64,000 nt of DNA from a virus (IMGVR_UViG_3300049306_000006:1-64000); one strand, 5' to 3'; numbered from the stretch's first letter, positions 13,780 through 30,284 are shown. Numbers and translations: made by a program. The notes: generated from the letters alone by a model not told the origin.

Positions 13780-13833
13780 TATAGTAGGTAGCGCTGAGGT
13801 ACAACCCTTCGTAACACACGAGGAGAACGACTG

Positions 13834-14070
13834 GTGATCGACTTAACGAGCGTCGAGTGGCGCAAGAGCAGCCGCTCCGGCGCCTACGGAGACAACTGCG
13901 TCGAGGTAGCTTTCGCCGACGACGACGGCGGCGGTTTCACCGCTGCCGTCGGCGAACGTACCGTCTTGGTTCGTGACTCGAAGAGTCCCGGCGGACCGGT
14001 GCTGACCTTCACCGCCGGCGAGTGGAACGCCTTCGTCGCCGGCGCGCGTGACGGCGAGTTCGACCTGTAG
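13834..14070 (+). CDS. DUF397 protein (copy 1)
   Basis: WRKSSRS..NCVEVA...VRDSK...LTFTAGEWNAFVAG signature; GAGGAG RBS. Confidence 0.9.
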   Translation: MIDLTSVEWRKSSRSGAYGDNCVEVAFADDDGGGFTAAVGERTVLVRDSKSPGGPVLTFTAGEWNAFVAGARDGEFDL

Positions 14071-14074
14071 CTCG

Positions 14075-14340
14075 CTTAGGACCGCGACGGCGTCAACCCC
14101 GGCTCCACCTATACCTTCACCGGGGAAGGACGGCCAAGACTCGAGCGTGAGGGCTCGACAGTCGTACCTGCGCCGTCGCGGCTCTAGCGTGACAGCTGTG
14201 TAGACAAACCGCACAGAGCGCACAGACTGCGCCGAACAACGACGAACAACGACGAACAAACTACACGCTAGACGCCAGAGTGGTGTACGCGGAACGAAGC
14301 CGCTGGACCGCCCACGCCGAGGTGGTAACCCAGTTCAAAA
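14075..14340 (+). ncRNA. candidate structured non-coding RNA
   Basis: Nested perfect stems 14082-92/14171-81, 14097-102/14120-25, 14141-46/14153-58 and 14183-91/14264-72; no credible ORF; strand inferred from flanking genes. Confidence 0.5.
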
Positions 14341-14358
14341 AACACAGAGGAGAGACGA

Positions 14359-14685
14359 GTGAAACTAGTAAAACCGCTCGAGACCGCTCGAGCGTCCGCG
14401 CAGTCCCTGCGCGAGACCGTCGACTCGTGGCTGCACGGCTTACTCAAGCACATGGCAGCGGCGCGCGCCGCGGACGAGCGCGTCCAACGGCGGCTCGGTC
14501 AGGTTCGAGTCCTGTACCAGAACCTGACCGAGGAGCAGCTGCGTGCCAAGGTCAAGGTCGACTACGACCTTAACGACGCGCTCAGCGAGTACCGACAGCA
14601 CTGCAGCGAGGTCCAGCGCTACTCGAACGCGATTCAGGCGCTGGCCGCGGGACACGAGCTTCTGACCGAGCTGAGCGAGCGCTAG
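14359..14685 (+). CDS. hypothetical coiled-coil protein
   Basis: GAGGAG RBS. Confidence 0.7.
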   Translation: MKLVKPLETARASAQSLRETVDSWLHGLLKHMAAARAADERVQRRLGQVRVLYQNLTEEQLRAKVKVDYDLNDALSEYRQHCSEVQRYSNAIQALAAGHELLTELSER

Positions 14686-14792
14686 CTCGGCGTCGACTTG
14701 CACGAGCGACTGACCTCGTTGTAGGATCACAGACAAGAGCCGCGTGACGCTAGCGCGAGAGACGAAGAGCAGAGAGTGAGAAGTGATGATTC

Positions 14793-15755
14793 ATGAGTGA
14801 CCAGAAGTGGCAGGACAACTTTAAGCTACGCTGCCAGGCCGTCGGCTGGCGCGTCGAGACGTCCAAGTCGAACCACAACAAGGTGTTCAGCCGGTCCGGC
14901 CAGCTGCTGCTGACGTACTCCGGGACGCCGAGCGACCGGCGTACGATGCTAAACGTGCTGGGACAGGCCAAGCGCGCCGGCCTCGAGCAGCTCGAGGCCG
15001 ACCAGAGGCTGGCCGCCGAGCGTGACAGGCTGACACGCATCGAGGTCGACAGGACGTCCAACGGTCACGTCGAGAGCCGGGTGACACCTCCCGTGTTCGT
15101 CGCGCCGGTCACCTCCGACGCGGCGCCGTTTCCCGCGACGGCCGAGCCGCGGAGCGAGCTCGGCCTAGGTCAGGTCGACGGCGTCGCGATCGTCGCCGTC
15201 GCACCCGCCAAGACGCAGACTCCAGTCATGGCGCAGCCGGCTCCGCTGGCTAACGCCGAGGAGCTGCTGCTGGCCGACGGTCGTGTGCTGTACCGGTGCC
15301 TCAAGCCGCAGCCGCTAACGGGTAACCCCTGTCACCGAACCTTCGAGACGGTCAACAGCGTGCGAGCCCACATTATTCACCACGCTCGTACCGCGGGGTC
15401 GCTGCGAGACCGAGACGTCGAGCCGGTGAAGCCGGTGAAGACAACGAAGGTTGCGAAGCCCGTAAAACCAGTGAAGCCTAGGGAGAAGAGCTCAGTGACA
15501 ACCACCGCCTCACCCGTGTCCGCGTCCGGCGAGCCGCCGACAGAGAGTCCCGCGAGCGACCGGGCGAGCGTCACGCAGCTCCAGCGGCGCGTGACGGCGA
15601 TCACCGAAGCGCTCGAGCTCATCTCGAACGGCGTGCGAGCCGTCTCACAAGAGGTGTCCGAGATCCAGTGTGAGCTCAACGAGCTCCAGGTGACCAGCGC
15701 CGAGACGCTGCGCAAGGCTGAGCAGTTCGACAACCTGAAGGCTATGCTGAGCTAG
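14793..15755 (+). CDS. HicA-like N-terminal domain + C2H2-like zinc finger + coiled coil
   Basis: GWRVETSKSNHNKV...GTPSDRRTMLN..KRAG (actinophage HicA-like); RCLK...CHRTFETVNSVRAHIIHH. Confidence 0.6.
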   Translation: MSDQKWQDNFKLRCQAVGWRVETSKSNHNKVFSRSGQLLLTYSGTPSDRRTMLNVLGQAKRAGLEQLEADQRLAAERDRLTRIEVDRTSNGHVESRVTPPVFVAPVTSDAAPFPATAEPRSELGLGQVDGVAIVAVAPAKTQTPVMAQPAPLANAEELLLADGRVLYRCLKPQPLTGNPCHRTFETVNSVRAHIIHHARTAGSLRDRDVEPVKPVKTTKVAKPVKPVKPREKSSVTTTASPVSASGEPPTESPASDRASVTQLQRRVTAITEALELISNGVRAVSQEVSEIQCELNELQVTSAETLRKAEQFDNLKAMLS

Positions 15756-15805
15756 GGCCGCGAGCGCCCCGCGAGCGTCCCGTAGACGTGTACGCTAGTT
15801 TCTAC

Positions 15806-15843
15806 GCGCGATCGAGCGCAGCCTTCCCCGCGCTCGATCGCGC
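15806..15843 (+). terminator. 14-bp perfect hairpin, probable terminator
   Basis: GCGCGATCGAGCGC-N10-GCGCTCGATCGCGC after the HicA-like gene. Confidence 0.6.
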
Positions 15844-15894
15844 ACGTAAGACCTAATCGTTCACCTGAGACACAGCGAGAAAGAGAAGAAAACC

Positions 15895-16533
15895 GTGACC
15901 GTAGCTGGTGTGGCCGTCGTTGCTCCTCTCACCGAGGACAGCGGCGGCCTCTTTTTTCTCGACGACCGCGACGCAGCGGTCATCGAGGCGCGTGAGAGCG
16001 CGCCGAACTCGTGGGACGTTCCGACAGCCCTCTTCGACGTCCTCAGCGAGAGTGACGAGCCCGACCGGAGCGAGCCGGTGCTCGGAACGGACGTCGCGGT
16101 CCGCTCCGTCACCCTCGCTCAAGCTAGTCGCCAGACGCCGCGCGTCCGACGGCGTCAGCGGCTCTCTGACGCGCTCTCGCGGGCCAGAGCCGCCTGGCGC
16201 GGGTTTGTTACCACGCTGCGCGACTCCTGGGCCTGGCTGACCGCTGAGACGCTGACCGAGGTACGCCGGCGTCGTCACGTCGGTCGTCACCGCCTAGCGC
16301 CGACGGGCCTGCACCGGACGACACGCACCGTCCTCGGCCGTGAGCGCTCCAGCGCCGAGTTCGCTCACGCGGCCGCGCTGCGCGCCCGCGAGCCGCGCGA
16401 CGAGGAGGGTGACTTAGTCTTTCGCGACGGCGACACGTTCGTGTCGTGGGTCGCGCTGGCGCTCGAGTCCGCGCGCCGGCTGGGTGAGGCGCGCCACCCG
16501 CCGGCACCCAGCCACCGCTTTCTCTGTTCATAA
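15895..16533 (+). CDS. hypothetical protein
   Basis: Purine-rich RBS; long ORF in operon direction. Confidence 0.55.
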   Translation: MTVAGVAVVAPLTEDSGGLFFLDDRDAAVIEARESAPNSWDVPTALFDVLSESDEPDRSEPVLGTDVAVRSVTLAQASRQTPRVRRRQRLSDALSRARAAWRGFVTTLRDSWAWLTAETLTEVRRRRHVGRHRLAPTGLHRTTRTVLGRERSSAEFAHAAALRAREPRDEEGDLVFRDGDTFVSWVALALESARRLGEARHPPAPSHRFLCS

Positions 16534-16559
16534 GCTGCGAACGGAACGGAGCTCAGGTC

Positions 16560-17648
16560 GTGTTATGTATCATCGATGGTCCGGACGGTACCGGCAAGTC
16601 GACGCTCGTCGCCGAGCTCAGCGCGTCGCTGCGCGAGCGCGAGCCCGCCGCTGAGGTCAGCGTAATCCACTGTAAGAGACCGACCGGTCACCCGCTGGAC
16701 GAGTACCTGACGCCGCTGCTGGACTACCGACCGGGAGCGGGTAAGCACCTGCTCTTCGACAGGTGGGCGTGGGGTGAGTACGTCTACCCGCACCTGTACG
16801 GCCGCGTGACGCAGCTCGACGAGCCAATCCTGTGGTACCTGAACCAGTACGTTCGCCGACTGGGCGGAGTCGTCGTCTCGACGAGGCTGCCGCGTGACGA
16901 CGTCGAGCGCGTCTACCGCCAGCGCGGCGAGTCCGAGCTGCTGGCGGACTACGCGCGGACGCTCGAGCTGTTCGCCGAGGTGGCTGCCGCCTCGCCGGTG
17001 CCACAAGTGACCTATGACTGGAGCGACGAGGTGAACCAGCGAACGCGGGGAAGTCTCACGGATCTGCTGGACCTGGCGCGCCGGTGTGAGCAGACCGTGA
17101 CTCCCCTAGCTAAGTACGTGACGCTGGTCGGAGCGACTCGGCCGAGCTACCTGCTGCTCGGTGACGTTCGTCACAAGGTCGACCGCGTGACGCAGCTGGT
17201 GACACGGACGGACCGCCGTCCCGCCTTCGTGCCGTACCGCCAGACGTCGGGGCACTGGCTGCTCGAGACGTTCGTCACTGACCCCGAGCTGCGTTCCGGC
17301 GTCGCGCTGGCCAACGCTTGCGACGTCGACGACGTCTACCAGCTGTGGCGTGACCTCGGTAAGCCGCGGACCGTCACGCTCGGCCGCAACGCTCACCGTG
17401 AGGTGGCGGCGTACGCCGAGCTGCGACACGGACAAGCTTCCCACCCGCAGTATATGAAACGGTTCCACAACAAGGAGCGTGACGTCTACCGCGCCGCGTT
17501 GCTGGAGGCCCTCGAGACGAACGGAGACTGTTCACGGTGGTTGAAGTCTACGCGACCTACGGCGCCGACGCCTACCCAGAGGTCATCAACTTGGTCCGTC
17601 GCCGAGGTGAGTCCTGTGACTCACGTAACGGTCCCGTCTACGACCTAG
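16560..17648 (+). CDS. dNMP (thymidylate-type) kinase fused to a UDG-superfamily-like domain
   Basis: IIDGPDGTGKST P-loop and FDRWAWGEYVY; C-terminal LLLGD, TVTLGRNA and SHPQY resemble UDG-fold motifs. Confidence 0.75.
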   Translation: MLCIIDGPDGTGKSTLVAELSASLREREPAAEVSVIHCKRPTGHPLDEYLTPLLDYRPGAGKHLLFDRWAWGEYVYPHLYGRVTQLDEPILWYLNQYVRRLGGVVVSTRLPRDDVERVYRQRGESELLADYARTLELFAEVAAASPVPQVTYDWSDEVNQRTRGSLTDLLDLARRCEQTVTPLAKYVTLVGATRPSYLLLGDVRHKVDRVTQLVTRTDRRPAFVPYRQTSGHWLLETFVTDPELRSGVALANACDVDDVYQLWRDLGKPRTVTLGRNAHREVAAYAELRHGQASHPQYMKRFHNKERDVYRAALLEALETNGDCSRWLKSTRPTAPTPTQRSSTWSVAEVSPVTHVTVPSTT

Positions 17649-18442
17649 CTAACCTGACGATCGAGCTCGAGTCGCCGCTGAACGCGCTGCCGTTGGGCTG
17701 CGGACGCAAGCTCAGCCCGCGCATCGCCGCGGCTGAGGCGCTCCAGCTAGTCGGTGGCTTCTCCGATCCCGCGTGGCTGTGCCGCATCGCGCCGCAGTTC
17801 AAGCGCTTTCGCGAGGACTTCAACGTCGACATCTCACCGTCACCTGACCGACCTTCTCGTCTCGAGCCAGTGCCGTGGTTTCACGGCGCCTACGGCAACC
17901 GAATCACGCGCTGGCCGCAGCTCGAGACGGTCGTTCGCCGGCTGCGCGAGTCGCCGAGCACGCGCCAGGCCGTCGTGACCCTGTGGGACCCGGCGCTCGA
18001 CGCGGTCAGTGACGACCACCTGGACTACCCGTGCACCGTGGCGCTGAACTTCCGGCGCACCGGCAAGCACCGCCAGAAGCTGAGCCTGCAAGTCCTAATG
18101 AGGAGCAACGACTGCTGGCTCGGGCTCCCCTACGACATTAATATGTTCACACAGCTCCAGCTGACGCTCTGCAACGTCCTGGCGCTGGAGCCCGGCACGT
18201 ACACTCACACCGCGTGGTCGGCGCACCTCTACCACGCTAACCTGGACGCCTCGTATGACGTGACGGACAACGCCGTGACGCGAACTGTGCGTCTCGATCA
18301 CGTGACGGGCGTCGGCCGCGAGTACGACACGCTCGCTGAGGTACGCCAGCGAGCCCACGCTCTGGCGCTGGAGCCCGAGAAGCTGACAGATCCGACGGAG
18401 AGCGAGAAGTGGTACCTTGACGTCCTCAGCTCGACACGTTGA
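17537..18442 (+). CDS. thymidylate synthase family, probable dCMP hydroxymethylase/methylase
   Basis: GAYGNR, RQAV, catalytic DYPCT, MRSNDCWLGLPYD (Asp at the base-specificity position), SAHLY. Confidence 0.8.
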   Translation: MVEVYATYGADAYPEVINLVRRRGESCDSRNGPVYDLANLTIELESPLNALPLGCGRKLSPRIAAAEALQLVGGFSDPAWLCRIAPQFKRFREDFNVDISPSPDRPSRLEPVPWFHGAYGNRITRWPQLETVVRRLRESPSTRQAVVTLWDPALDAVSDDHLDYPCTVALNFRRTGKHRQKLSLQVLMRSNDCWLGLPYDINMFTQLQLTLCNVLALEPGTYTHTAWSAHLYHANLDASYDVTDNAVTRTVRLDHVTGVGREYDTLAEVRQRAHALALEPEKLTDPTESEKWYLDVLSSTR

Positions 18443-18959
18443 CGCCGTAGCGCGTCCCTCGTGGCACGAGACGCGCCTCGAGATGGCGCGCGCCGTCGCC
18501 CGGCGCAGCCTGTGCTCCCGTGATCAGGTCGGCGCTATCATCGTTGACCGTGACAACAAGGTCATCGGTGAGGGTCACAACGGACCGCCGCGCGGCTTCT
18601 TTCACGACCAGCGGCGGTGCCTCGAGTGGTGCCAGCGAGCGCAGCGAGCGCCGGTGCTGACGGCGCACCTCGGCTCAGTCAGTGAGTTGCACCCTACGTA
18701 CGACGACTGTCCCTCGCTTCACGGTGAGGCCAACTGTCTCATGATGTCGGACCGCTCGCTGCGCGCCGGTGGCACGATCTACGTCACCAGTCACGTCTGC
18801 TTTAGCTGTGCCAAGCTGATCGCCAACTCAGGCTTAAGATACGTCTACGTCACAACCGGTGAGGAGCACGCGCACCGCTCCAGCGCCGTGTCATATGATT
18901 TTCTCGTTTATTGTGGACTCTACGTCACCGTCAACGGTGAGAGGTGGGAGAAGAAGTGA
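18417..18959 (+). CDS. dCMP deaminase family
   Basis: RSLC..DQVGAII, GHNGPP, LHGEANC, VCFSCAKLI. Confidence 0.85.
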   Translation: MTSSARHVDAVARPSWHETRLEMARAVARRSLCSRDQVGAIIVDRDNKVIGEGHNGPPRGFFHDQRRCLEWCQRAQRAPVLTAHLGSVSELHPTYDDCPSLHGEANCLMMSDRSLRAGGTIYVTSHVCFSCAKLIANSGLRYVYVTTGEEHAHRSSAVSYDFLVYCGLYVTVNGERWEKK

Positions 18960-19168
18960 GCACCTGGCAGAGGTCGAGCCGCTGCGGTGAGTCAACGCAC
19001 TGTGTCGAGGTGTGGTTCGAGCCGTCGCGAGAGAAGCTAACCGTCGACGAACCGCGTTTCGTGCTCGTGCGCAGCTCTAGTGATCCGACTGGTCCAACTC
19101 TTAGGTTCACCGAGACTGAGTGGCGTAGCTTTCTCGCCGTCGTTAGCGACGGAAACCACGACCTGTGA
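18956..19168 (+). CDS. DUF397 protein (copy 2)
   Basis: WQRSSRC..THCVEV...VRSS.DP.GPTLRFTETEWRSFL. Confidence 0.8.
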   Translation: MSTWQRSSRCGESTHCVEVWFEPSREKLTVDEPRFVLVRSSSDPTGPTLRFTETEWRSFLAVVSDGNHDL

Positions 19169-20949
19169 GCAAGCTAGCCGGAGTCCAGCTTCACCGCGTC
19201 GATGACTTCGACGACGTCCAGAGCTTTCTCGACTGGGCGTGGGCGGTCCGGAGCAAGCCCGTCGGCGTCGACACCGAGTCGACGGGCTTCTACTGGCACC
19301 GTGACGACTACGTTCGCACCGTTCAGGTCGGTGACGAGACGGACGGCTGGTGCCTGCGCTGGGACAGGTGGTCCGGCCTGTTCGAAGCCTTCCTGAAGGT
19401 TCACACCGGACCGATTGAGATGATGAACTCGAAGTTCGACTACGCCTTTCTGCGCAAGGCCGGCGTCGAGCTGGACAAGTCTCGCGTTCGCGACGTCGGC
19501 GTCATGTCTCACGTTCTCGAGCCGCACCTGTCGCGCGCGCTCAAGAACCAGGCCAAGCGGCACGTCGATCCCGCGGCCAACGCGCTGCAGTACAAGCTCG
19601 ACGAGGCCCTCGGCGCGCACGGCGGCTGGACGTGGGCTACAGTGCCGTACGACTTTCAGCCCTATTGGTCCTACGCAGCGTTGGATCCCGTCCTGACGGT
19701 GCTGCTGGCGCAGCACCACTGGCCGCTGGTCCAGGAGCAGGCGCCGGCGGCCTACGAGCTGGAGAACGCCTTCCAGTGGGTCGCCCTCACCATGGAGACG
19801 CTCGGCACTCCCGTCGACGTCGACTACGCCAGCCAGCACTACGACAAGTTCACGGCCTACTGCGCCGAGGTCGAGCGCTGGTGTCAGGCCGAGTACGCCG
19901 TCAAGCCGGGCAGCAACGCCGCGGTGATCGACGTCCTGTCCAGGGCGGGCTTCGAGTTCTCGAAGGCCACCAAGTCCGGCGCCGTCGCGCTGGACAAGGA
20001 CGTCCTGGAGGGCATCGACCACCCGCTGGCCCAGGCCGTCCTGCGCCGGCGCCAGCTCCAGAAGATCGCCTCGACGTACCTGAGGTTCTACGTCGACAAC
20101 GCGGACGCCGAGGCGCGCATTCACCCGTCGATCAACACCCTCGGAGCGCGCACGAGCCGCATGTCGATGGCCGAACCGAACTTCCAGAACCTGCCGGTGC
20201 GCGGCGGCAACCCCGCGATCAAGGTGGTACGCAACTGCGTCCGGGCCCGTCCCGGTCACACCCTGGTCTTCTCCGACTTCGACCAGGTCGAGATGCGCGG
20301 CCTGGCGATCATGTCAGGTGACCCGGGCCTGATCGCCGCCTTCCGCTCGCCGGAGGACTTCTTCGTCAACCTGGCGCGAACCGTCTACCAGGACTCGAGC
20401 ATCGAGAAGTCGGACCCGCGGCGGCAAGTGATCAAGAATACCGGCTACGCCACCATCTACGGAGCCGGAGTTTCCAAGCTCGCTCAGACCGCCGGAATCA
20501 CGCAGCAGCAGGCCGCCTGGACCAAGCAGATGTTCGACGCGACGTACCCGAGGGTTCCCGAGTTCACGCAGAGCGTCTTCACCGAAGCGATGCAGAACCT
20601 GCACTCACAGGGAACTCCGTACGTTCCGTGTCCGCTGACGGGTCGTCGTCACGTCGCTGACCGCGGCAAGGAGTACGCCCTAGTCAACTACGCAATCCAA
20701 GGGTGGGCCGCCTCCCTGTTCAAGACCAAGCTGCTGGAGGCCGACGCCGCGGGCCTCGGTGATTTCATGATACTTCCCGTACATGATGAAATCATCCTCG
20801 AGGTTGAAAACACGCAGCTGCGCGACGTCATTCACACGCTGCGCAAGGTGATGAACGACGACGAGTCGTTCGCCGTCCCGATCTCCGCCAGCGTCGCCGT
20901 CGGCGAGCGCTGGGGAGAGAAGCGTGAGCTGCGAGACGGTGAGCTGTGA
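19165..20949 (+). CDS. polA: DNA polymerase family A with 3'-5' exonuclease
   Basis: VDTES (Exo I), YAALD, SDFDQVEMR (motif A), KNTGYATIYG (motif B), PVHDEI (motif C). Confidence 0.95.
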   Translation: MSKLAGVQLHRVDDFDDVQSFLDWAWAVRSKPVGVDTESTGFYWHRDDYVRTVQVGDETDGWCLRWDRWSGLFEAFLKVHTGPIEMMNSKFDYAFLRKAGVELDKSRVRDVGVMSHVLEPHLSRALKNQAKRHVDPAANALQYKLDEALGAHGGWTWATVPYDFQPYWSYAALDPVLTVLLAQHHWPLVQEQAPAAYELENAFQWVALTMETLGTPVDVDYASQHYDKFTAYCAEVERWCQAEYAVKPGSNAAVIDVLSRAGFEFSKATKSGAVALDKDVLEGIDHPLAQAVLRRRQLQKIASTYLRFYVDNADAEARIHPSINTLGARTSRMSMAEPNFQNLPVRGGNPAIKVVRNCVRARPGHTLVFSDFDQVEMRGLAIMSGDPGLIAAFRSPEDFFVNLARTVYQDSSIEKSDPRRQVIKNTGYATIYGAGVSKLAQTAGITQQQAAWTKQMFDATYPRVPEFTQSVFTEAMQNLHSQGTPYVPCPLTGRRHVADRGKEYALVNYAIQGWAASLFKTKLLEADAAGLGDFMILPVHDEIILEVENTQLRDVIHTLRKVMNDDESFAVPISASVAVGERWGEKRELRDGEL

Positions 20950-21037
20950 CAACGTGGACTAAGCACCACACCACGCTGCTGTTAGGAGTCGTTCTCGTGT
21001 GTTTCAGCGGCTGCCTCTTTGTATTAGTGAGATGTTG

Positions 21038-21250
21038 ATGAAAACAAGAAAACTAAGAGTTTTAAAGACAGCGTCAACCTGGTGGCGTATCATCACACGT
21101 CAACAAACGCCGATAGAAAAAGCACGACGTGCGATCAGGGGAGCTCGCCGCCAGAGCGAGTGGCTCGGTAAGAGGCCGTTCAGCGACAAGTACGGCTATG
21201 ACGGCAGCGCCGAGTCGTCACGTTTCGTCGGATACGATGACAAGACTTGA
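21038..21250 (+). CDS. small basic hypothetical protein
   Basis: Low-GC ORF MKTRKLRVLK... Confidence 0.45.
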   Translation: MKTRKLRVLKTASTWWRIITRQQTPIEKARRAIRGARRQSEWLGKRPFSDKYGYDGSAESSRFVGYDDKT

Positions 21251-21426
21251 GGAAGTGAGTGATTAGGTGACTGTCGACTGGAAGTGGCGCTTCGTGGACG
21301 CGGGTTGTCCGAACTGCGGCGCTCAGCGAGGTGGACCGGAGGGTCTACACCACCACGACTTAACCGTCTGGTGCCTACGCTGCGGCTGGGGCCGCAACTG
21401 GACTGACCTAGCGGTGAGGTACCAGC

Positions 21427-21879
21427 GTGATCCTAGTAGGCGTTGATCCCGGCAAGGTCACCGGTCTCGCGGTCTGGTGGTCGCCGGAGTCATACGACTC
21501 GGCGGCCGCTAACCGCGGTCCGCTGGATACCGCGGAGGTAACCGCTTCACACGTTACGCCGGTCCTACGCCGAATGCTCGACGGTCGGCGACCAACTCTG
21601 GTGGCCGTCGAGCGCTACCGCCAGACGGGACGTAAGACTCACCAACCGCACGCCTACGAGGTGATCGGCGCCGTCAAGGCGCTGTGTGACGAGCTGACTG
21701 TCCGCTGCGTCTACCAGTCGCCGTCACCGACACAGAAGACCGGTCGTCCCGAGCTGCTGCGCCAGCTCGGCTGGTTCGTTAAGTCCAAGGACGGCCACGC
21801 GAACGCGGCGACCGGTAACGTGCTACACTGCCTAGCTACCTTTTATCCCGAGACATACGCCGAACTTGTTGGCTTGTAG
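21427..21879 (+). CDS. RuvC-like Holliday junction resolvase
   Basis: ILVGVDPGKVTGLA, VAVERY, HANAA. Confidence 0.8.
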   Translation: MILVGVDPGKVTGLAVWWSPESYDSAAANRGPLDTAEVTASHVTPVLRRMLDGRRPTLVAVERYRQTGRKTHQPHAYEVIGAVKALCDELTVRCVYQSPSPTQKTGRPELLRQLGWFVKSKDGHANAATGNVLHCLATFYPETYAELVGL

Positions 21880-21935
21880 TAGGATAGACACGAGACACGA
21901 GACACGAGACGAGCGAAACTGAGAGGAGTGAACCG

Positions 21936-22145
21936 GTGAGTGACGACTTCTACCTCAAGACACCGCCGCTCAACCACCCCGACTGGCGTCCGTACGCCTT
22001 TAACGGCCACTACTGCGTCGCCGAGCGGTGGTGCCCGTGCGGCCACTGGGGCGCCGGTCGCCGTGCCACGAGGCGCGTCGACGGTAAGCGCGGTTTGGTG
22101 ACGCTGGACCGGATCGAGGAGAGCGGTGGCGATGGCGCACGCTGA
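21936..22145 (+). CDS. hypothetical protein
   Basis: GAGGAG RBS; TAGGAT -10 element. Confidence 0.55.
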   Translation: MSDDFYLKTPPLNHPDWRPYAFNGHYCVAERWCPCGHWGAGRRATRRVDGKRGLVTLDRIEESGGDGAR

Positions 22146-22416
22146 CATCCTCGACACGGCTAAGCGCCGGATCTTCGTCCAGACGGTCTGGAGCGAAAAA
22201 GAAATGATCAAGCTGGTTCCCGGCTCGTCGTGGGACAACGACCGCAAGCTGTGGACGGTGCCGCTGACGTGGCCCGCGTGTCTCCAGCTGCGCGGAATCT
22301 TCGGCCAGACGCTGACCGTCGGACCCGAGCTGACCCGCTGGGCGGCCGAGGAGCACGCCGGACGCGTCGGTCGTGCGCTCGAGCTGCGCAACTTGACGGA
22401 ATTAAATCATGACTAA
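22126..22416 (+). CDS. HARP-like helicase accessory domain protein
   Basis: EKEMIKLVPGSSWDNDRKLWTVP, like the N-terminal domain of phage SNF2 helicases. Confidence 0.6.
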   Translation: MAMAHADILDTAKRRIFVQTVWSEKEMIKLVPGSSWDNDRKLWTVPLTWPACLQLRGIFGQTLTVGPELTRWAAEEHAGRVGRALELRNLTELNHD

Positions 22417-24100
22417 GACTTATGAACTGTTCGATTATCAGCGAGCTGACGTAGCGTTTCTTGAAGTCGCAGGCAGTGCGCTCCTCGGTAATGACATGGG
22501 TCTTGGTAAGGGACCTGCAGCTCTAAAGACGATCGAACGAGTAGACGGGCTGCCCGCGCTCGTCGTATCACCGAACTCGATGAAGTTCACGTGGGCGCTG
22601 GAGGCCGAGAGGTGGTTACCGTCCGCCAAGCCGTACGTCGTCGACGGCACAGCCGCGGCGCGCAAGAAGCTGCTCAGTGCGGCCTCGCAGGACCCGAGCG
22701 CGCTCGTCATCATCAACTATGAAGCGCTGCGCGGCCACTCCCGCCTAGCGGGCTACGGCTCGATCGCGCTGGCGCGCTGTCCCGAGTGCGGCGGCAGCGA
22801 CCCGAAGGTGACACATACTAAGTGTGAGGTTCACCCGCGCGAGCTCAACGTCATTCCCTTCAAGACAGTCATACTAGACGAGGCTCACCGCTGTAAGGAC
22901 TGTCACTCGAAGCAGACTCGCGCCGCCTGGGCCATCGGCCAGGGCAAGACGGTGACGCGTCGCTACGCGCTGACGGGCACCGCGATCTCGGGTGACCCGT
23001 CCGACCTGTGGTCGATCCTACACTTTCTGGCACCGGACGAGCACCCAACCAAGACCAAGTTCGTCGACAGGTACTGCGTCCAGGCCTTCAACGCGTGGGG
23101 CGGCCTCGACGTCAAGGGCCTGCACCCCGCGACCCGTGAGGAGTTCTACCGTGTCATCGACCCGCGCTTTCGCCGAATGCCGAAGGACCTAGTCCTCTCA
23201 CAGCTGCCGCCGAAGGTCCGCTCGACCCGCTTCGTCGAGCTGACGCCGAAGCAGCGGAAAGCGTATGACGAGCTCGAGACGGGCCTGGTAACGCGGCTGC
23301 CCGACGGTAACGTGCTGGTCGCCAGCAACGACCTAGAGGCGCAGGTCCGCCTGCTTCAGTTCGCCTCGGGAACCATGGAACGCACCTTTGTGCCGCTGGA
23401 CTACGAGCGCGCCCTCCAGCTGAACCAGGCACACCGCGCCGGCGGCAAGGGTGAGCTGTTTACCGCGGCCGAGCTGGCGTACGTTCGCGAGACCGGCTTT
23501 CATCCCAGGCCGACGTACCGAATGTGCGACCCGTCATCGAAGGTAGACGCGCTGGTGGACATCCTGGAGGAGCTCGGTGACAAGCCGGTCCTGGTCTCGG
23601 CGGCTCACCGCCAGCTGATCAACCTAGCGGCGGCGCGGCTCGACAAGCTGAAGATTCAACACGGTTTACTCGTCGGCGGTCAGCAGGCCTTCGAGCGCCA
23701 GGCGACGCTGCGTGACTTCCAGGCCGGCAAGCTGCGCGTCCTGCTGTTCACGCTAGCCGCGGGCGGCACAGGCCTGACGCTGACCGCGGCCGACACGCAG
23801 GTCAGGCTCCAGCGCTCGTGGTCACTGATCGAGAACCTACAAGCGGAGGACCGAAATCACCGCATCGGCTCGGAGATCCACTCATCGATTCACTACGTCG
23901 ACGTCGTTGCTAGGGGAACCGTCGAGGAGGTCCAGCTGGAGCGCCTGTGGGAGAAGACCGAGCGCCTCGAGGAGATCAACCGTGACCGGGCGCGGCTTCA
24001 GCTGGAACGCCGAGTTACCGACGAGCTCGACGCCGAGCTCGCGCGGCTCGAGGCTCTCAACCTCGGTGAGGTCTCTCAACCTAAGGAAGGAGACGCGTGA
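22409..24100 (+). CDS. SNF2-family helicase
   Basis: DMGLGK, ILDEAH, LTGT, QAEDRNHRIG. Confidence 0.9.
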   Translation: MTKTYELFDYQRADVAFLEVAGSALLGNDMGLGKGPAALKTIERVDGLPALVVSPNSMKFTWALEAERWLPSAKPYVVDGTAAARKKLLSAASQDPSALVIINYEALRGHSRLAGYGSIALARCPECGGSDPKVTHTKCEVHPRELNVIPFKTVILDEAHRCKDCHSKQTRAAWAIGQGKTVTRRYALTGTAISGDPSDLWSILHFLAPDEHPTKTKFVDRYCVQAFNAWGGLDVKGLHPATREEFYRVIDPRFRRMPKDLVLSQLPPKVRSTRFVELTPKQRKAYDELETGLVTRLPDGNVLVASNDLEAQVRLLQFASGTMERTFVPLDYERALQLNQAHRAGGKGELFTAAELAYVRETGFHPRPTYRMCDPSSKVDALVDILEELGDKPVLVSAAHRQLINLAAARLDKLKIQHGLLVGGQQAFERQATLRDFQAGKLRVLLFTLAAGGTGLTLTAADTQVRLQRSWSLIENLQAEDRNHRIGSEIHSSIHYVDVVARGTVEEVQLERLWEKTERLEEINRDRARLQLERRVTDELDAELARLEALNLGEVSQPKEGDA

Positions 24101-24274
24101 GCTTTTTGTTCGGTCTAGTCCTCGGCGCGCTGGTCACCGGCGTCGCCGGGTACGCGTGGCTGTTCTGGTACTTTAAGGACTCGTTCAAGTGATCGGCAGA
24201 GACTGGGCGATCGACGCGGCGTACGTCGTGCAGACGGCGCTGGTGTTCCTCTGTATCCTCGGGACGGTGTGGTC

Positions 24275-25267
24275 GTGACGATCGTCGACGGCGTCCGCGT
24301 CGTGAGTAACTCTGAGCTCCAAGCGTTTAAGTGGTGTCGCCGCCACTGGTGGCTGGCCTGGTACCGCGGGCTGACGCCGCGCGCCGGCGAGAGCGTCACC
24401 GGCGCAGCGGCGACCGGTACGCGGATCCACGAGGCGCTAGCCGGCTACTACGTTCCCGACGACCAGCCGGCGGCCGACCCGCTGGTGACGCTGCGCGCCG
24501 CGCAGCAGCGTGACCTGGCGCTGCACGTCGGTCGCGCCTTCGGTCCGGACCAGCCGCTCGGCGACGAGAACGAGCGGGCGCTGACGCTGAGCGAGGGTAA
24601 GCGCCTCGAGAGCGACTTCGTCCTCGAGCAGCGGGTGATCGAGGGCTACCTGGAGTGGCTCGCCGAGACGGGAGCCGACGCCGAGTGGGAGATCATCGGC
24701 TCTGAGCAGTACGTCGAGACCGTCATCGAGGTCGAGGACTGCGGTCCCGTCAAGCTGATCGGCAAGCTCGACGCGCGGGTGCGCAGCCGGGTCACCGGTC
24801 AGCTTAGGTTCATAGACCATAAAACCGTCTCGACGCTCTTCGACCCGCTGCTCGGCCTCAACCAGCAGATGCTGCACTACGAGCTCATCGGCACGCTGCT
24901 CGGCTGGGGACCGACGACCGGCGCGCTGTACAACATGCTCCGCAAGGTCAAGCGCACCGCCGCGGCGCGGCCGCCGTTCTACGCGCGTGTTCAGATCGAT
25001 CACAACAAGCACGAGCTTCAGGCGTACTCGGCACAGCTGGCAGGTACAATTCGTGATATGATAGACGTCGAGCGTCGGCTCGCCGCGGGCGTCTCGCACC
25101 ACGCGGCGGCGTACCCGACGCCGGGCCGTGACTGCGGCTGGAGGTGCCAGTTCGTCGGTGTGTGCCGCCTGCTCAACGACGGCTCACGCTCCGAGGACGC
25201 GCTGACCGATCTCTATGAGGTCAGGGACCCGCTGACCTACTACGGTAGCAGTAGAGAAGGAGAGTAG
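24275..25267 (+). CDS. Cas4/RecB-like PD-(D/E)XK exonuclease
   Basis: SNSEL..FKWC, GTRIH, GKLD...IDHKT, C-terminal CGWRCQF..VC. Confidence 0.85.
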   Translation: MTIVDGVRVVSNSELQAFKWCRRHWWLAWYRGLTPRAGESVTGAAATGTRIHEALAGYYVPDDQPAADPLVTLRAAQQRDLALHVGRAFGPDQPLGDENERALTLSEGKRLESDFVLEQRVIEGYLEWLAETGADAEWEIIGSEQYVETVIEVEDCGPVKLIGKLDARVRSRVTGQLRFIDHKTVSTLFDPLLGLNQQMLHYELIGTLLGWGPTTGALYNMLRKVKRTAAARPPFYARVQIDHNKHELQAYSAQLAGTIRDMIDVERRLAAGVSHHAAAYPTPGRDCGWRCQFVGVCRLLNDGSRSEDALTDLYEVRDPLTYYGSSREGE

Positions 25268-25271
25268 AGGA

Positions 25272-25607
25272 GTGATTAGTTGGCTCGACACGGACCCGGC
25301 GACGTGGAACGTCGTGGCCGCGGGCTACGCACAGAGCTGCCCGGACGACTGCGGCAACCGGATCGAGGTCGGCACGCCGATCACTCGCGCCTCGGGCGTC
25401 TGGCGCCGGCGAACCTGTGTCCTGCGTCAGTGGAACGACTACCAGCGGCTCGTGCTCACCGGAACACAGGCCGAGCTTACCGCCGCGATCAAGCGTGTGA
25501 CCAGGCTCGGCGGCTACCTGGTAGTGCGCGGCTGGGACCCGCGGGAAGCGCGTGACGCGCGTTTCCGGTGGACGGAAGTGACACCGACCGAGGAGGAAGA
25601 CAGGTGA
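25272..25607 (+). CDS. hypothetical protein
   Basis: RBS; coupled. Confidence 0.55.
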   Translation: MISWLDTDPATWNVVAAGYAQSCPDDCGNRIEVGTPITRASGVWRRRTCVLRQWNDYQRLVLTGTQAELTAAIKRVTRLGGYLVVRGWDPREARDARFRWTEVTPTEEEDR

Positions 25608-25789
25608 CCGGTAACCGCAGAGAGAAGCGGCTCGCCCGTGAGCGCCGGGAGCAGCTCGGCTGCGACTACGCGACGGCGCTGCGTCAGGTTCGCGCCGAGT
25701 ACGAGGAGAAGCTGCTCGCTCGGACGCGAGCGCTGCTCGACAACGTCGAAACCGTGACAGTGACTCACGACAAGGAGTCAAGTGAGTAA
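25604..25789 (+). CDS. hypothetical protein
   Basis: GTG coupled start (MTGNRREKRLAR...YATALR). Confidence 0.55.
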   Translation: MTGNRREKRLARERREQLGCDYATALRQVRAEYEEKLLARTRALLDNVETVTVTHDKESSE

Positions 25790-26555
25790 GTCTGAGACGG
25801 AGGCCGTCCTCTCCACACTGATCCACGCGGACTCCAAGGAGGGTAAGACGACGGTAGCCAGTACGTCACCGACGCCGCACCTGGTGCTGGACGCGGAGGG
25901 TTCGTGGAAGTTCATCGACGAGGTCGGCTACCGCTCGGGAAAGCGGCTGAGCAAGCTGGCGTGGAACCCGCTGACTGAACCTGTCCCGCGCCAGACGGAC
26001 GGAGACTGGAACCTCGTGCGAGTCAACGTTCACTCGTGGGACGTTCTGGCGGCGACGTACCGCTGGCTGTCACAGGCCGAGCACGACTTCGTCTCGGTGA
26101 CGCTCGACTCGATCACCGAGGCTCAGCGTCGGTGCAAGAAGAACATCCGCACTGGCACCGAGCAGATGCAGACCCAGCAGTGGGGCCAGCTGCTCGACCA
26201 GATGGACGGCCTGATCCGCGGCTTTCGCGACCTGACGCTGCTACCTAATCCGATTCGCGTCGTCAACTTCATCTCGGAGACGGTGATGAAGGACGGCAAG
26301 TGGCGCCCGTACATGCAGGGTCAGATACGCGACACGATTCCGTATTTCGTCGACATCTGCGGCTACCTATTCACCGAGCTGCGCCCGAACGGCGACAAGC
26401 AGGACAAGGTCAAGCGCCTGCTGATCGGCGCCGGAGTCAACCCTGGCTACCTGGCGGGCGAGCGCGTCCAGGGACGCCTGCCGGACATCATCGACAACCC
26501 AAGCATCGCGGATATGCTAGCTAAGGTGTATCCCGACTTTAAGGAGAGCGAGTGA
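25782..26555 (+). CDS. AAA_24/Sak4-like ATPase
   Basis: HADSKEGKTT, LDAEG, TLDSITE, QQWGQL. Confidence 0.8.
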   Translation: MSKSETEAVLSTLIHADSKEGKTTVASTSPTPHLVLDAEGSWKFIDEVGYRSGKRLSKLAWNPLTEPVPRQTDGDWNLVRVNVHSWDVLAATYRWLSQAEHDFVSVTLDSITEAQRRCKKNIRTGTEQMQTQQWGQLLDQMDGLIRGFRDLTLLPNPIRVVNFISETVMKDGKWRPYMQGQIRDTIPYFVDICGYLFTELRPNGDKQDKVKRLLIGAGVNPGYLAGERVQGRLPDIIDNPSIADMLAKVYPDFKESE

Positions 26556-27181
26556 GCGAGAACACCATCGACTGGGCCAGCCTACACCAGGACAGCACGA
26601 CGACGCTGGAGGGGGAGTTTCCCGTCGTCATCGTGGAGGCGACGGCGACCAAGACTAACGACCAGTCGAAAGATATGATTAAGTGGAAGGCCAAGGTCGA
26701 GTCCGGTCCGTACGCGGGACGGCCGTTGTGGGGCAACTTCACGATCTCTCCCGAGTCGCCCGGCGCGATGCGCATCCTGTTCTCTCACCTGGCCGTCCTC
26801 GGACTGGACGGCGCCTTCTTTGCGGCCAACCAGCACGCGCCCGTCGCGGTGATCGCGCAGGCGCTGGTCGGCCGCAAGGCGGTCGCCGAGGTCGGCACCC
26901 GCTCGTGGAACGGTACCGAACGTGAGGAGGTCAAGGCGTGGAAGCCCGCGCTCGGCGGACCGGGAGGCGGTACCTCCCTGGGCGTTCTGGGCGGTCTTAC
27001 CGGCGGAGGCGGTAGTTCGCTCGGCGGAACGCCCGTCGCGCCGTCAGCGGGCGTCTCGCCGGCCCCAAAAGCCGCGCAGTCACCGGTCTCGGGCCCTTCG
27101 GTGTCGGCGGCAACTACGCCCGCGGTCTCCGAAGTTACCTCTAGCGAACCGTCGACTCCCGCTCCTGAGCTGCCCTTCTAG
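26552..27181 (+). CDS. DUF669-like single-stranded DNA-binding protein
   Basis: MIKWKAKVESGPYAGRPLW; low-complexity tail ending ELPF; follows the Sak4-like gene. Confidence 0.75.
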   Translation: MSENTIDWASLHQDSTTTLEGEFPVVIVEATATKTNDQSKDMIKWKAKVESGPYAGRPLWGNFTISPESPGAMRILFSHLAVLGLDGAFFAANQHAPVAVIAQALVGRKAVAEVGTRSWNGTEREEVKAWKPALGGPGGGTSLGVLGGLTGGGGSSLGGTPVAPSAGVSPAPKAAQSPVSGPSVSAATTPAVSEVTSSEPSTPAPELPF

Positions 27182-27210
27182 GCTACGATGATACATGACT
27201 ACGTAGTAGA

Positions 27211-28590
27211 GTGGTGGACGATGAGTCCACCGCTCTCTCACAGAGGAGTGAAGTGCGAAAACGTGTAGGATACGCTAAGTTAGGTCGATCGATGCCCCTC
27301 TCGCTTGCCAGGTGCGGCACCGCGGGCGGAGACGTCGAGATGATTCCGACGCTGAAGCTGCTCGCTGAGCGTCACCCGGACGTCGACTTCATCCTAGTCG
27401 GCCGCAACACCGGCGAGCTTCCCGCGGCCGTCGGCCTGCCGACTAACGTCTCCAACCCCTGGGTCACCTGGCAGCCGCTGATCCGCGCCGAGCTCAACGC
27501 GGCGGGTCTCAATCACGGAAATTTGACGATCGACGAGCACGTTCGTGTCCGTGAGATCCTCGAGGCGCACACGCGCGCGACGTTCGAGTCGCTCGACGGC
27601 CTCGTGTCGTGGCTCGGCCAGCACGGCACGACCAACACGCCGCTACCGTCGATCCAGGAACGCTCGAGGCTGACCAAACCGTACGACTGGTCGTCGCTCT
27701 ACTGCTCGTACCTGCTGTGGGGAGTCAACGCCTGGCGTGACGCGGACCCGCTGAGACGTGAGGAGGTGCTGCTGAACGCGGACCCGCGTAACTACCCGAA
27801 GTACCGTGACACGAAGTGGCCGCTGCGTCATCCCGTTCTCGCGCAGTACGACGTCGTTAACACGATCAAGCACGAGCGCTACGGCGACGCTACGGGCTTC
27901 GAGTGGTGGCACCTCGTTCTAGGTGACGACGTCGACGTCGAACCCGGTCGAGACGAGAACGAGCTCTGGCGGTCGAAGGTCCGCAGCGTCTACTCGCGCC
28001 TAGAGATCTCGGCGCTGGTTCCCGGTACGCCGTTCGGCGACACCGTCAAGTTCGATGACGACTTCGAGCGACCGCACGACCTCGGTCTCGTCATCAACGA
28101 GACCCGACGTGAGGGCGCGCTCGGCAAGACTCGTCGTCAGATCTTACGTGACTGGGTACTACCGCTGGAGCCCGCCTTCATCCGCGGCAAGTGGTCCGAC
28201 CAGTCACAGCGCGAGCTGGGTGTCGAGATCACTCCAGTTCCTGTGGTTAACTACCTAAGCTTGCTCCAGACGGCGCGCTGCACGCTGACGACGCCGTCAT
28301 CAGGCTCCGGCTGGGCGACCGCCAAGCCGTGGGAAGCGTTCGCCGCGGGCGTCGTCTGCTTCTTTCACAACGCGTATGACGACCAGGATCACATCCTCGG
28401 TGACGCGCCGCCGGAGCTGCGCGCTTTCCTGCGCGTCGGCTCGGCCGCGGAGCTCGCGGAGCGCGTCCGAACGGTGTCACGAGACCGCGAGACGTGGCGG
28501 TGGGCCGTCAAGCTCCAGCGTGAGCACTTCGAGCGTGCCGTCGCCGAGCTACGCTGGCTCAGGCTGATCGAGGAGAGGCTGGAGCTGTAG
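27211..28590 (+). CDS. GT-B glycosyltransferase, probably DNA/nucleotide-modifying
   Basis: C-terminal TLTTP..SGWATAKPWEAFAAGVVCFF donor-binding motif; located among replication and nucleotide genes. Confidence 0.7.
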   Translation: MVDDESTALSQRSEVRKRVGYAKLGRSMPLSLARCGTAGGDVEMIPTLKLLAERHPDVDFILVGRNTGELPAAVGLPTNVSNPWVTWQPLIRAELNAAGLNHGNLTIDEHVRVREILEAHTRATFESLDGLVSWLGQHGTTNTPLPSIQERSRLTKPYDWSSLYCSYLLWGVNAWRDADPLRREEVLLNADPRNYPKYRDTKWPLRHPVLAQYDVVNTIKHERYGDATGFEWWHLVLGDDVDVEPGRDENELWRSKVRSVYSRLEISALVPGTPFGDTVKFDDDFERPHDLGLVINETRREGALGKTRRQILRDWVLPLEPAFIRGKWSDQSQRELGVEITPVPVVNYLSLLQTARCTLTTPSSGSGWATAKPWEAFAAGVVCFFHNAYDDQDHILGDAPPELRAFLRVGSAAELAERVRTVSRDRETWRWAVKLQREHFERAVAELRWLRLIEERLEL

Positions 28591-29411
28591 TGGACGCGAT
28601 AATCTTGGCGGGAGGTCGCGGCGAGCGGGTCGCGGGTCTGACGGGCCCGTTCTTCAAGCCGCTGCTGGAGGTCGACGGCGAACCGCTGGTTCGCCGGGCG
28701 GTCCGCGTCGCACACGAGACTAGCGACACGATACCGATCGTCGTAACGGCACCAGCGAACACCGAAGCCATTCACGACGCACTGACCGGGTTTGAGGCAA
28801 ACCTGATTGTTCAACGTGAGCCGCTCGGCGACGCGCACGCGCTGCTGACCGGACTCCTAGTTAAGCCGAGAGGCAGTGAAGCACACGAGACGGACGAGCG
28901 AGTGCTCGTGCTGCTCAGTGACAACACGACGACGCTCGCCGACGTCCAGGCCGTCACCGCGCACGAGGTAGCCGTCGGCGTCCAGCGCTTCGACAGGTCC
29001 AAGGCCGCACGCTTCGCGCGCTTCGAGGCCGGACGTTGGGTCCAGAAGGTTCCCGTCGCCGTCGATGACGTGAGCCTGGCGTGCTGGGTGGGTCCGTTCG
29101 TTGGGTCGCGCGCCGCGGTGTACCGTGCCACGCTCGACGTCGTCACGCGCGCGTACCTGAGCGGAGATGAGGCGCTGATCGGTCCCAACCTCGGTCAGCT
29201 GGTACCGAACGCCGAGCTAGTGACCGTCGAGACGGAGGACGTCGGTACGCTGGAGGCCTACGCCGAGTACCTGCGACTGCGTCGACTCGACAGGTGTCCG
29301 CGCCACGACGTCAGCTTCAGCGTCACCGAGCGTACCGGCGTCGGTCGACGCGTCTGTCCCAGCGGGGACACGTGGTACGTTGAGAACGACGTCCTACGTC
29401 AATATGAGTGA
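28590..29411 (+). CDS. sugar-phosphate nucleotidyltransferase (NTP_transferase)
   Basis: AIILAGGRGER..KPLLEVDGEPL, QREPLG.AHA, DVGT. Confidence 0.85.
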   Translation: MDAIILAGGRGERVAGLTGPFFKPLLEVDGEPLVRRAVRVAHETSDTIPIVVTAPANTEAIHDALTGFEANLIVQREPLGDAHALLTGLLVKPRGSEAHETDERVLVLLSDNTTTLADVQAVTAHEVAVGVQRFDRSKAARFARFEAGRWVQKVPVAVDDVSLACWVGPFVGSRAAVYRATLDVVTRAYLSGDEALIGPNLGQLVPNAELVTVETEDVGTLEAYAEYLRLRRLDRCPRHDVSFSVTERTGVGRRVCPSGDTWYVENDVLRQYE

Positions 29412-29557
29412 AAACGACAAAAGAGTAGGAGACACACAGGTGAGTGACAACAAGAGGGACGAAAACAGGACAGACTGGCCGATCGCGACGGTAATGTTGG
29501 GCTTTATGGCCGCAGTGGTTGCCGTCGTCTACATCATTGCGAAGGTGTGGTGCTGAC

Positions 29558-30064
29558 GTGATCGACAAGCTCGAGCACCTCATCCGGCTGCAGCGTGACC
29601 TGCAGACGCGGACGTTCGGCTTCGACTTCGCTACGATGACGCCAGACGAGCGGATCCGGTACATTCGTGACCAGCACCAGGCGATCGTCGTCGAGCTGGT
29701 CGAGGCGCTCGACGAGGTCGAGTGGAAACCGTGGGCCCAGCCGGTCAGTCCCGCTCACGGTCGCCGGATCAACCGCGACGCGTTCGTCGGCGAGCTGATC
29801 GACGTGCTGCACTTCTGGGTCAACATGGTGCTCGCCGTCTCAGGTGACGCGACGCCGACCGAGGTCGCGGACGAGGTCTTCACGCGCTACGCGCTCAAGC
29901 ACCGCGTCAACGTCCAGCGCCAAGCCGACGGCTACGACGGGTCCTCCACCAAGTGTCACAGCTGTAAGCGCGCGCTCGATGATCCGGCCGTAGCGTGCTG
30001 GCGCCGCGGTGACCAGGGGTTCTGCAGCCAAGAAAACGTCGACGTCAACTACGTTAAGAGCTAG
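29558..30064 (+). CDS. all-alpha dUTPase/dCTPase (MazG-like)
   Basis: ELVEALDEVEWKPW, ELIDVLHF, K..VN.QRQ..GY. Confidence 0.85.
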   Translation: MIDKLEHLIRLQRDLQTRTFGFDFATMTPDERIRYIRDQHQAIVVELVEALDEVEWKPWAQPVSPAHGRRINRDAFVGELIDVLHFWVNMVLAVSGDATPTEVADEVFTRYALKHRVNVQRQADGYDGSSTKCHSCKRALDDPAVACWRRGDQGFCSQENVDVNYVKS

Positions 30065-30077
30065 GGAGAGACAGCGA

Positions 30078-30284
30078 GTGAACAGCTCTGAAGTGTCTTG
30101 GCGAAAGAGCACACGCAGCGCCGGCAGCGGTGAGTGTGTCGAGGTAGCTCTAACCTCGGACAGCGTAGCGGTGCGAGACTCCAAGAACCCGGCCGGCGGA
30201 GAGCTGCGCTTCACGCACGTCGAGTGGAACACCTTCGTCGCAGGAGTCAAGACTAGCGAGTTCGACGCTAACGTCGACGGATAA
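30078..30284 (+). CDS. DUF397 protein (copy 3)
   Basis: WRKSTRS..GECVEVA..VAVRDSKNPAGGELRF...EWNTFVAGVK. Confidence 0.9.
   Translation: MNSSEVSWRKSTRSAGSGECVEVALTSDSVAVRDSKNPAGGELRFTHVEWNTFVAGVKTSEFDANVDG

Follow-up and report, generated by a model that had tools for sequence, protein, structure and literature searches.

Three DUF397 genes without an XRE partner in the replication arm of a large, probably virulent actinophage

Few regulators of filamentous actinomycetes are as expanded, or as poorly understood, as the DUF397/BldB proteins, of which a genome has a median of 19-26 copies; they are tied to sporulation and antibiotic production. Their closest described setting is the XRE-DUF397 pair (WhiJ/BldB-paralogue, Scr1/Scr2), in which the DUF397 protein is thought to hold WhiJ off its operator (PMC6262351). 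BldB hetero-oligomerises with its paralogues; when it is lost, WhiJ9 activates the iosA and abaA genes and sporulation is blocked, and natural WhiJ-BldB fusions are on record (n = 129) (PMC10294661). Antibiotic production is raised by XRE-DUF397 operons (bioRxiv 10.64898/2026.06.17.732583). Here we describe three DUF397 genes in a stretch of 64,000 nucleotides of viral DNA (bases 1-64000 of the IMG/VR virus genome IMGVR_UViG_3300049306_000006, hereafter the window), none of which has a partner gene anywhere in the 98,878-bp source record. The protein family itself is already known and the three copies are plain members of it. What is new is the architecture and setting: several copies without an XRE stand in the replication arm of large phages that lack an integrase, and the arrangement recurs in phages with few or no other genes in common. 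Our search of the literature returned no paper treating DUF397 genes carried by phages, and the recurrent pattern is apparently undescribed.

The three genes lie on the plus strand at 13834-14070 (copy 1, 78 aa), 18956-19168 (copy 2, 70 aa) and 30078-30284 (copy 3, 68 aa). Each encodes a single small domain that matches PF04149 (DUF397), with 86.4, 60.4 and 78.5 bits, respectively, against a gathering cut-off of 24. All three open with GTG, behind GAGGAG in copy 1 and GGGAG in copies 2 and 3, and the start of copy 2 is also that of the public gene call P0123. When the whole genome was searched in six frames, the same three genes came up and no further one, and all three products match phrog_10815 (E 1e-10 to 1e-20). 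They are acidic, with isoelectric points of 4.3 (copy 1), 5.2 (copy 2) and 4.9 (copy 3), and 44-55% identical to one another, with residues C, V, E, R and S invariant. The hallmarks of the family (W-x-K-S-S-x-S, CxE/CVEV, RDS(K)xP and a C-terminal W..F helix) are all present in copies 1 and 3, which are canonical. Copy 2 is divergent: it keeps CVEV and R.S, and has RSS for RDS, S for K, R for K, C for S, and A to W. Copies 1 and 2 have in common an inserted loop between CVEV and VRDSK, which occurs in Streptosporangiaceae proteins too; copy 3 has none. As a separate observation, many bacterial and phage DUF397 proteins have additional half-repeats (W-x-K-S-S...CVEV), one or several, at the N-terminus ahead of the full domain, among them P0018, P0028, P0066 and P0105 as well as proteins of the genomes G008 (88.5-89.0 kb), G016, G017 and G043; the window copies have no such repeats.

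The sequence-only reading had called DUF397 genes at 13834, 18956 and 30078, none of them next to an XRE/DUF5753 partner, and both statements hold, at start sites that fit. Nor does any copy have an adjacent cognate antitoxin gene of the kind expected from the predicted type II toxin-antitoxin (TA) pairing with Xre. A cognate XRE gene beyond the window, which would have counted against that reading, is not there either: the complete record contains none. It holds no DUF5753 at E values up to 1, no HTH_31 or HTH_3, and no AbaA-like HATPase_c_2 (PF13581) at E values up to 0.1. A custom hidden Markov model (HMM), built from twelve WhiJ-like XRE proteins whose genes precede bacterial DUF397 homologues, likewise found nothing in this phage genome; as a control, it recovered the partners in the phages PIS 136, Samy and Picard with E values of 1e-57 to 1e-84. 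Because these searches of the whole record for XRE, DUF5753 and AbaA found nothing, the three DUF397 genes are partner-less at the level of the genome, the completeness of which (100% by CheckV) is an estimate.

The record has no end repeats, and the GC content of the window is about 64%. The plus strand carries genes for replication and nucleotide metabolism between about 12.4 and 37.9 kb; past this stretch, structural genes follow on the minus strand. Close isolated relatives are lacking: megablast of an 18-kb region against INPHARED gave no match, and the major capsid protein and DNA polymerase I (Pol A) reach at most 31% and 38% identity, respectively, to those of isolated actinophages (phages of Microbacterium, Arthrobacter and Gordonia and an 'Actinomycetia' lake phage). 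Neither a tyrosine integrase nor a large serine recombinase was found in the phage genome, so that the phage is probably virulent. We take it to be, in all probability, a large lytic phage of filamentous actinobacteria, and its best protein matches point to a host among the Micromonosporaceae or Streptosporangiales.

Copy 1 is surrounded by what looks like a self-contained, swappable promoter-gene-terminator cassette (13777-14185), judging from a motif on one side and a hairpin on the other. The motif, TGATATAGTAGG (13777-13788, plus strand), is extended -10-like and constitutes a candidate promoter about 45 nt upstream of the gene. With up to two mismatches, the window has four sites for it where 0.49 are expected, and none of 100 shuffles reaches four; the other sites are at 6847 and 8644 on the minus strand, both between gene calls of the minus-strand arm, and at 3163 on the plus strand. 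On the 3' side, in a non-coding gap of about 290 nt, a long stem-loop (14080-14185, plus strand) is a candidate terminator or insulator; its minimum free energy is -65.8 kcal/mol (z -3.28), and none of 200 shuffles was equally stable. Generic scans of 12-32 kb added little: the sigma-70 promoter scan was uninformative, with 3 promoter-like sites against 1.4 expected, and terminator-like sites were rarer than in shuffles. The best homologues of copy 1, 60-69% identical, belong to Micromonosporaceae, Frankia, Nocardia and Streptosporangiaceae, and the topmost (69%) is an XRE-paired protein of a Micromonosporaceae. At identities of at least 51%, every homologue locus (9/9) has a WhiJ-like XRE gene directly upstream, and in the tree copy 1 falls among XRE-paired Micromonosporaceae proteins.

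Copy 2 is set tightly between a dCMP deaminase gene (18417-18959, plus strand; PF00383, E 3e-14) and the Pol A gene (19165-20949, plus strand; PF00476, E 6e-65). The stop of the deaminase overlaps the start of copy 2 at 18956-18959, and the stop of copy 2 overlaps the start of Pol A at 19165-19168, each time in the form GTGA; copy 2 is presumably translated within the deaminase-Pol A string, upstream of which lie a kinase and a ThyA-like gene. Among 1.84 billion representatives copy 2 has no close relative, the best match having 46% identity (E 1e-11). The nearest relative of the phage that we found (G001/L008) is a genome of 61.7 kb that has terminal repeats; its replication module is collinear with that of the window phage, at 37-51% amino-acid identity. 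DUF397 occurs nowhere in this genome, and about 120 nt separate its deaminase from Pol A. The isolated phage DSL-LC01 has the string kinase, ThyA, deaminase, Pol A, helicase and PD-(D/E)XK, in which the deaminase overlaps Pol A directly with no DUF397 between them. Since the same junction exists without DUF397 in both genomes, copy 2 is, on this comparison of sequences, a lineage-specific insertion into a conserved operon.

Copy 3 stands between a dUTPase_2-family gene, itself preceded by an NTP-transferase, and a C5 methyltransferase gene; its best homologues, about 60% identical, come from Streptomyces, Saccharopolyspora and Pseudonocardiaceae. The gene neighbours thus agree with the placement of two of the copies, the second and third, inside nucleotide-modification blocks. 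The block of 27.2-30.3 kb that ends in copy 3 has no counterpart in the nearest relative. Its part at 27211-30064 encodes a protein of 459 aa that matches nothing in Pfam or PHROG, the NTP-transferase, and the dUTPase_2-family protein, which carries an FCS-type zinc finger, and it seems to have been gained along with copy 3. Copy 2 and the copy 3 block are both gained accessory genes rather than core genes, since the nearest relatives have collinear replication modules that contain neither.

Isolated phages with DUF397 genes are few. A tblastn search with copy 1 over 50,697 records gave five matches, namely PIS 136, Samy, Mojorita and two Picard entries, and a helix-turn-helix (HTH) gene of 280-325 aa stands immediately before the DUF397 gene in all three records inspected (PIS 136, Samy and Picard). 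The sequence-only reading had also called for a survey of DUF397 copy number in phages. We searched IMG/VR with a degenerate DNA pattern for CVEV...VRDSK, which returned at least 120 contigs, every one with a true DUF397, roughly one in two being XRE-paired and one in three solo. Among the matches listed, to which the counts from IMG/VR given below also refer, full-length viral DUF397 domains comprise 64 that are XRE-paired, 59 that are solo (at least 1.3 kb of upstream context without an XRE) and 23 at locus edges; this tally takes in the three window copies and ten from the genomes G002, G008, G037 and G045. No DUF5753 occurs anywhere in 47 of the 50 non-paired records; of the 21 with a completeness of 90% or more, 19 lack it. 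Genomes of 85-160 kb are among the records without it. Paired records are more often of the provirus class (29/50 versus 10/50; Fisher p 2e-4) and more often encode a tyrosine integrase (29/50 versus 12/50; p 1e-3) than non-paired ones.

Solo and multi-copy genomes recur in this survey. G045 has three dispersed copies, G037 one copy and a tandem pair, G008 a tandem pair, and G002 and G040 two copies each. They are not close kin of the window phage: G002 (95 kb, two solo copies) has almost no other genes in common with it, and G008 and G045 only distant structural genes. The contexts of the solo copies differ as well, G008 having one beside an M23/LysM peptidase gene and G045 one by ParB-like and primase genes. 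The window thus illustrates a recurrent pattern clearly, and its number of dispersed copies is unusually high. Two further observations concern these neighbourhoods: in G037 (L227, 9821-13745) and G008 (L236, 9078-10705) solo DUF397 genes lie next to or near a gene for an Rv2179c-like 3'-5' exoribonuclease, and in G037 two IS605 TnpB (Cas12f-like TNB) genes stand beside the DUF397 copies.

The solo viral copies bear signs of maintenance. Their frequencies of W-K-S-S, CVEV, VRDSK and W..F are those of the XRE-paired copies. The bacterial orphan DUF397 proteins in our set, unlike them, have not kept the hallmark motifs: most come from Streptomycetaceae, where ilvC, tatC and other housekeeping genes are their neighbours, and the changes C to D, E to Q and K to S mark them as a divergent subfamily. 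The loci of this orphan subfamily (L030, L034 and L083-L090, on chromosomes of Kitasatospora, Streptomyces and Streptacidiphilus) may represent BldB-like proteins proper. Among solo viral copies, dN/dS ranges from 0.09 to 0.78, with 0.16 for the sole pair of usable divergence (dS 0.36); no orthologues of the window copies were found for such a comparison, and these values cover the solo copies of other phages. The retention of the hallmark columns, together with dN/dS below 1, argues for a maintained function in phage solo copies generally. In trees that rest on about 70 alignment columns and resolve nothing strongly, a weakly supported cluster (SH-aLRT 90) consists of solo viral copies only; it includes copy 2 and has copy 3 as a neighbour, and it suggests maintenance within phages. 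The sequence-only reading had called the three genes paralogues; at 44-55% identity, a common origin within the phage is neither shown nor rejected, a single clade for the three being compatible with the data (approximately unbiased (AU) test, p 0.36, 52-row tree).

We tentatively favour the binding of host or prophage WhiJ-type regulators, or of DUF397 paralogues, as the best-supported mechanism, and would call it possible rather than probable. On this proposal, a probably virulent actinophage would make canonical DUF397 proteins of the partner type from its early/replication arm by three routes: copy 1 from its own promoter-like cassette, copy 2 read together with the deaminase and polymerase, and copy 3 within a nucleotide-modification block. 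Because the phage has no XRE partner of its own, they would most likely act in trans on proteins of the host or of a resident prophage. The targets would be WhiJ-type XRE-DUF5753 regulators, or host DUF397 paralogues with which they would form hetero-oligomers, and the transcription programmes of WhiJ/DUF397 modules would be blocked or re-wired as a result. Developmental arrest or sporulation, the production of specialised metabolites and possibly prophage-encoded exclusion might be the programmes affected. We infer what the proteins would bind and how the phage would benefit. The decoy idea of the sequence-only reading, in which phage copies titrate host XRE regulators, is in line with this. 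Its host-regulator part agrees with the orphan state of the genes across the genome, the pairing with XRE in isolated phages, the canonical motifs, the XRE-paired kin of copy 1 and the published antagonism between DUF397 and WhiJ. The further suggestion that XRE-linked defence modules are among the targets did not fare as well. PADLOC v2 models match none of the three DUF397 proteins.

Several points weigh against binding of host regulators. The XRE partners from hosts and phages match only generic HTH models in PADLOC, for which reason the link to defence modules is speculative. Copy 2 lacks the D and the K of the RDSK motif and may not bind the same partners. A role in DNA metabolism would fit as well, given where the genes are located in the replication and nucleotide module and the weak PC4-like resemblance of the fold described below. 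Solo status is not peculiar to phages, because bacterial chromosomes hold XRE-less DUF397 genes too, at 60 of the 80 loci in our (biased) set. As for the survey, the difference in integrase content is not significant among records at least 90% complete (15/25 versus 8/21; p 0.24), the IMG/VR sample is biased and was drawn with a single restrictive pattern, and proviral records may contain host flanks.

Another role that would account for the genomic setting is that of PC4/Pur-alpha-like accessory proteins, with a dimeric fold that binds single-stranded or modified DNA and serves replication, recombination or nucleotide modification. The AlphaFold2 (AF2) model of copy 1 (pLDDT 82) has strands at 23-28, 43-48 and 56-60, a short bridge at 10-11 and a C-terminal helix at 61-72; the DUF397 fold has been described as four strands and a helix (PMC7159879), and a sequence search of the PDB returned no solved DUF397 structure. 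VIA-align places nearly all of its top rows in the PC4/Pur-alpha class, led by the PC4 homologue BPSL1147 (Z 5.1, rmsd 3.2, 60 aligned residues) and followed by PURA, human PC4, Pur-alpha and MoSub1 (Z 4.5 each), a PC4-like protein of phage T5 (3.5) and YdbC (3.4), and yet every one of these scores is below the noise guide, since unmatched models typically reach a best Z of 7-8. In Foldseek, the best match of the same model is the PC4-like MoSub1 (TM 0.52) at a non-significant E of 0.24, and nothing in the PDB or BFVD matches at E of 0.001 or below. The resemblance is therefore a lead, not a result. It sits well with the overlaps of copy 2 with the dCMP deaminase and Pol A genes, with the ParB-like and primase genes by the G045 copy, and with the Rv2179c-like exonuclease near the G037 and G008 copies. 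The nearest relatives, however, replicate with the same module and no DUF397, solo copies in other phages occur in unrelated contexts such as the M23/LysM peptidase of G008, and the net acidic charge (isoelectric points of 4.3-5.2) speaks against nucleic-acid binding without excluding it. An HTH motif once claimed for BldB was, moreover, not confirmed by Makarova et al. (PMC2701414). On balance we find a PC4-like role unlikely. The same Makarova et al. study of 2009 predicted DUF397 as the toxin of a type II TA pair (PMC2701414), and HTH-less DUF397 copies have been put forward as co-effectors of VMAP-ternary conflict systems (Kaur et al., 2020; PMC7159879). A phage that has no XRE at all might then deliver DUF397 without its antitoxin to arrest the host. 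This strikes us as very doubtful: Scr2, the sole DUF397 protein tested as a toxin, is not toxic on overexpression even without its XRE (PMC6262351), BldB has an ordinary role as a regulator of development (PMC10294661), the domain has no catalytic motif, and XRE-less DUF397 genes are common in bacterial chromosomes.

The accessory nature of the copies, missing as they are from the nearest relatives, would also suit passenger genes, that is, remnants of XRE-DUF397 cassettes of hosts or temperate phages that have lost their XRE and have no function in the phage. Temperate phages and proviruses with whole cassettes provide a possible source, and copy 2 is highly divergent. Remnants of this kind are nevertheless hard to reconcile with three intact reading frames that score 60-86 bits and keep the invariant residues of the family, with the precise overlaps of copy 2 inside an otherwise conserved operon, or with the Shine-Dalgarno sequence, promoter-like motif and hairpin that copy 1 has of its own. 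Solo copies with dN/dS below 1 recur, besides, in many near-complete genomes that share few or no other genes with the window phage, and the weakly supported cluster of solo viral copies suggests that phages maintain them; we accordingly think a passenger status quite improbable. The three differently organised transcription contexts of the copies, and the WhiB-like protein that the phage encodes, might instead indicate regulators of the phage's own programme, in which DUF397 partners a phage DNA-binding protein of another family, such as the WhiB-like one, and times phage expression. No known type of DUF397 partner is encoded in the phage genome, and no specific phage gene was seen to co-occur with DUF397 across G002, G008, G037 and G045, which leaves such a role with very little probability in our judgement.

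The WhiB-like gene itself is real (37580-37915, plus strand; 111 aa; PF02467, E 1.7e-17, 60.9 bits). The sequence-only reading had counted it with the DUF397 genes of 13834-30284, and it lies outside that span. Its product has two CxxC pairs in a C-terminal extension beyond the WhiB domain, possibly a zinc ribbon. Elsewhere in the window, a 320-aa protein encoded at 14793-15755 matches a HicA-like PADLOC model with its N-terminus (E 8e-5), as well as phrog_2089; no HicB-type partner was among the matches found.

Binding of host WhiJ-type regulators can be extended to a more general proposal. Solo DUF397 proteins would then be widespread, phage-maintained small anti-regulators that neutralise the WhiJ-type XRE-DUF5753 switches of hosts and of their resident prophages, and the XRE-DUF397 modules of filamentous actinomycetes and the cassettes of temperate actinophages would be infection-responsive checkpoints (developmental arrest, antibiotic or other chemical defence, superinfection exclusion), which virulent phages would have to disable. 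We consider this extension rather unlikely as it stands. If virulent phages routinely carry the small subunit alone, the small subunit would be the inhibitory, trans-acting half of the pair; solo phage DUF397 proteins would be natural probes for those WhiJ-type regulators that matter in infection, and phage infection would be linked to the control of development and specialised metabolism. Should the PC4-like reading prove true instead, a biochemical activity would be assigned to a large orphan domain family.

Among known systems, the XRE-DUF397 pairs (WhiJ/BldB-paralogue, Scr1/Scr2) have the same domain and hallmark motifs as the window copies, and copy 1 is 69% identical to a paired member. 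They differ in their setting, since the phage has no XRE-DUF5753 or AbaA-like gene and its copies are found among viral replication and nucleotide genes. The cassettes of temperate phages (Samy SAMYPH_91/90, Picard gp25/gp24 and PIS 136 PIS_120/119) also represent phage-borne DUF397 of phrog_10815, but theirs follow an HTH gene of 280-325 aa, and the Samy pair is about 1 kb from the integrase, whereas the window phage has three solo copies in an integrase-less genome of 99 kb. Actinophages carry homologues of host regulators such as WhiB, and the DUF397 genes resemble these in being phage copies of a host developmental or transcription regulator; WhiB-type homologues are complete DNA-binding regulators, while DUF397 is a small partner subunit with no recognised DNA-binding domain. 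The DUF397 genes linked to VMAP-ternary systems (Kaur, Burroughs, Iyer and Aravind, 2020; PMC7159879) are similar in that several are uncoupled from an HTH and stand in a conflict setting; they are bacterial and lie beside vWA-MoxR-type systems, none of which was seen near the phage copies. The best functional analogy is BldB of Streptomyces, a member of the DUF397 family that has no adjacent WhiJ and acts in trans on WhiJ/AbaA loci (PMC10294661). BldB is described as a poor DUF397 match with an extended N-terminus (PMC10294661), and compared with this description the phage copies are canonical members of the family.

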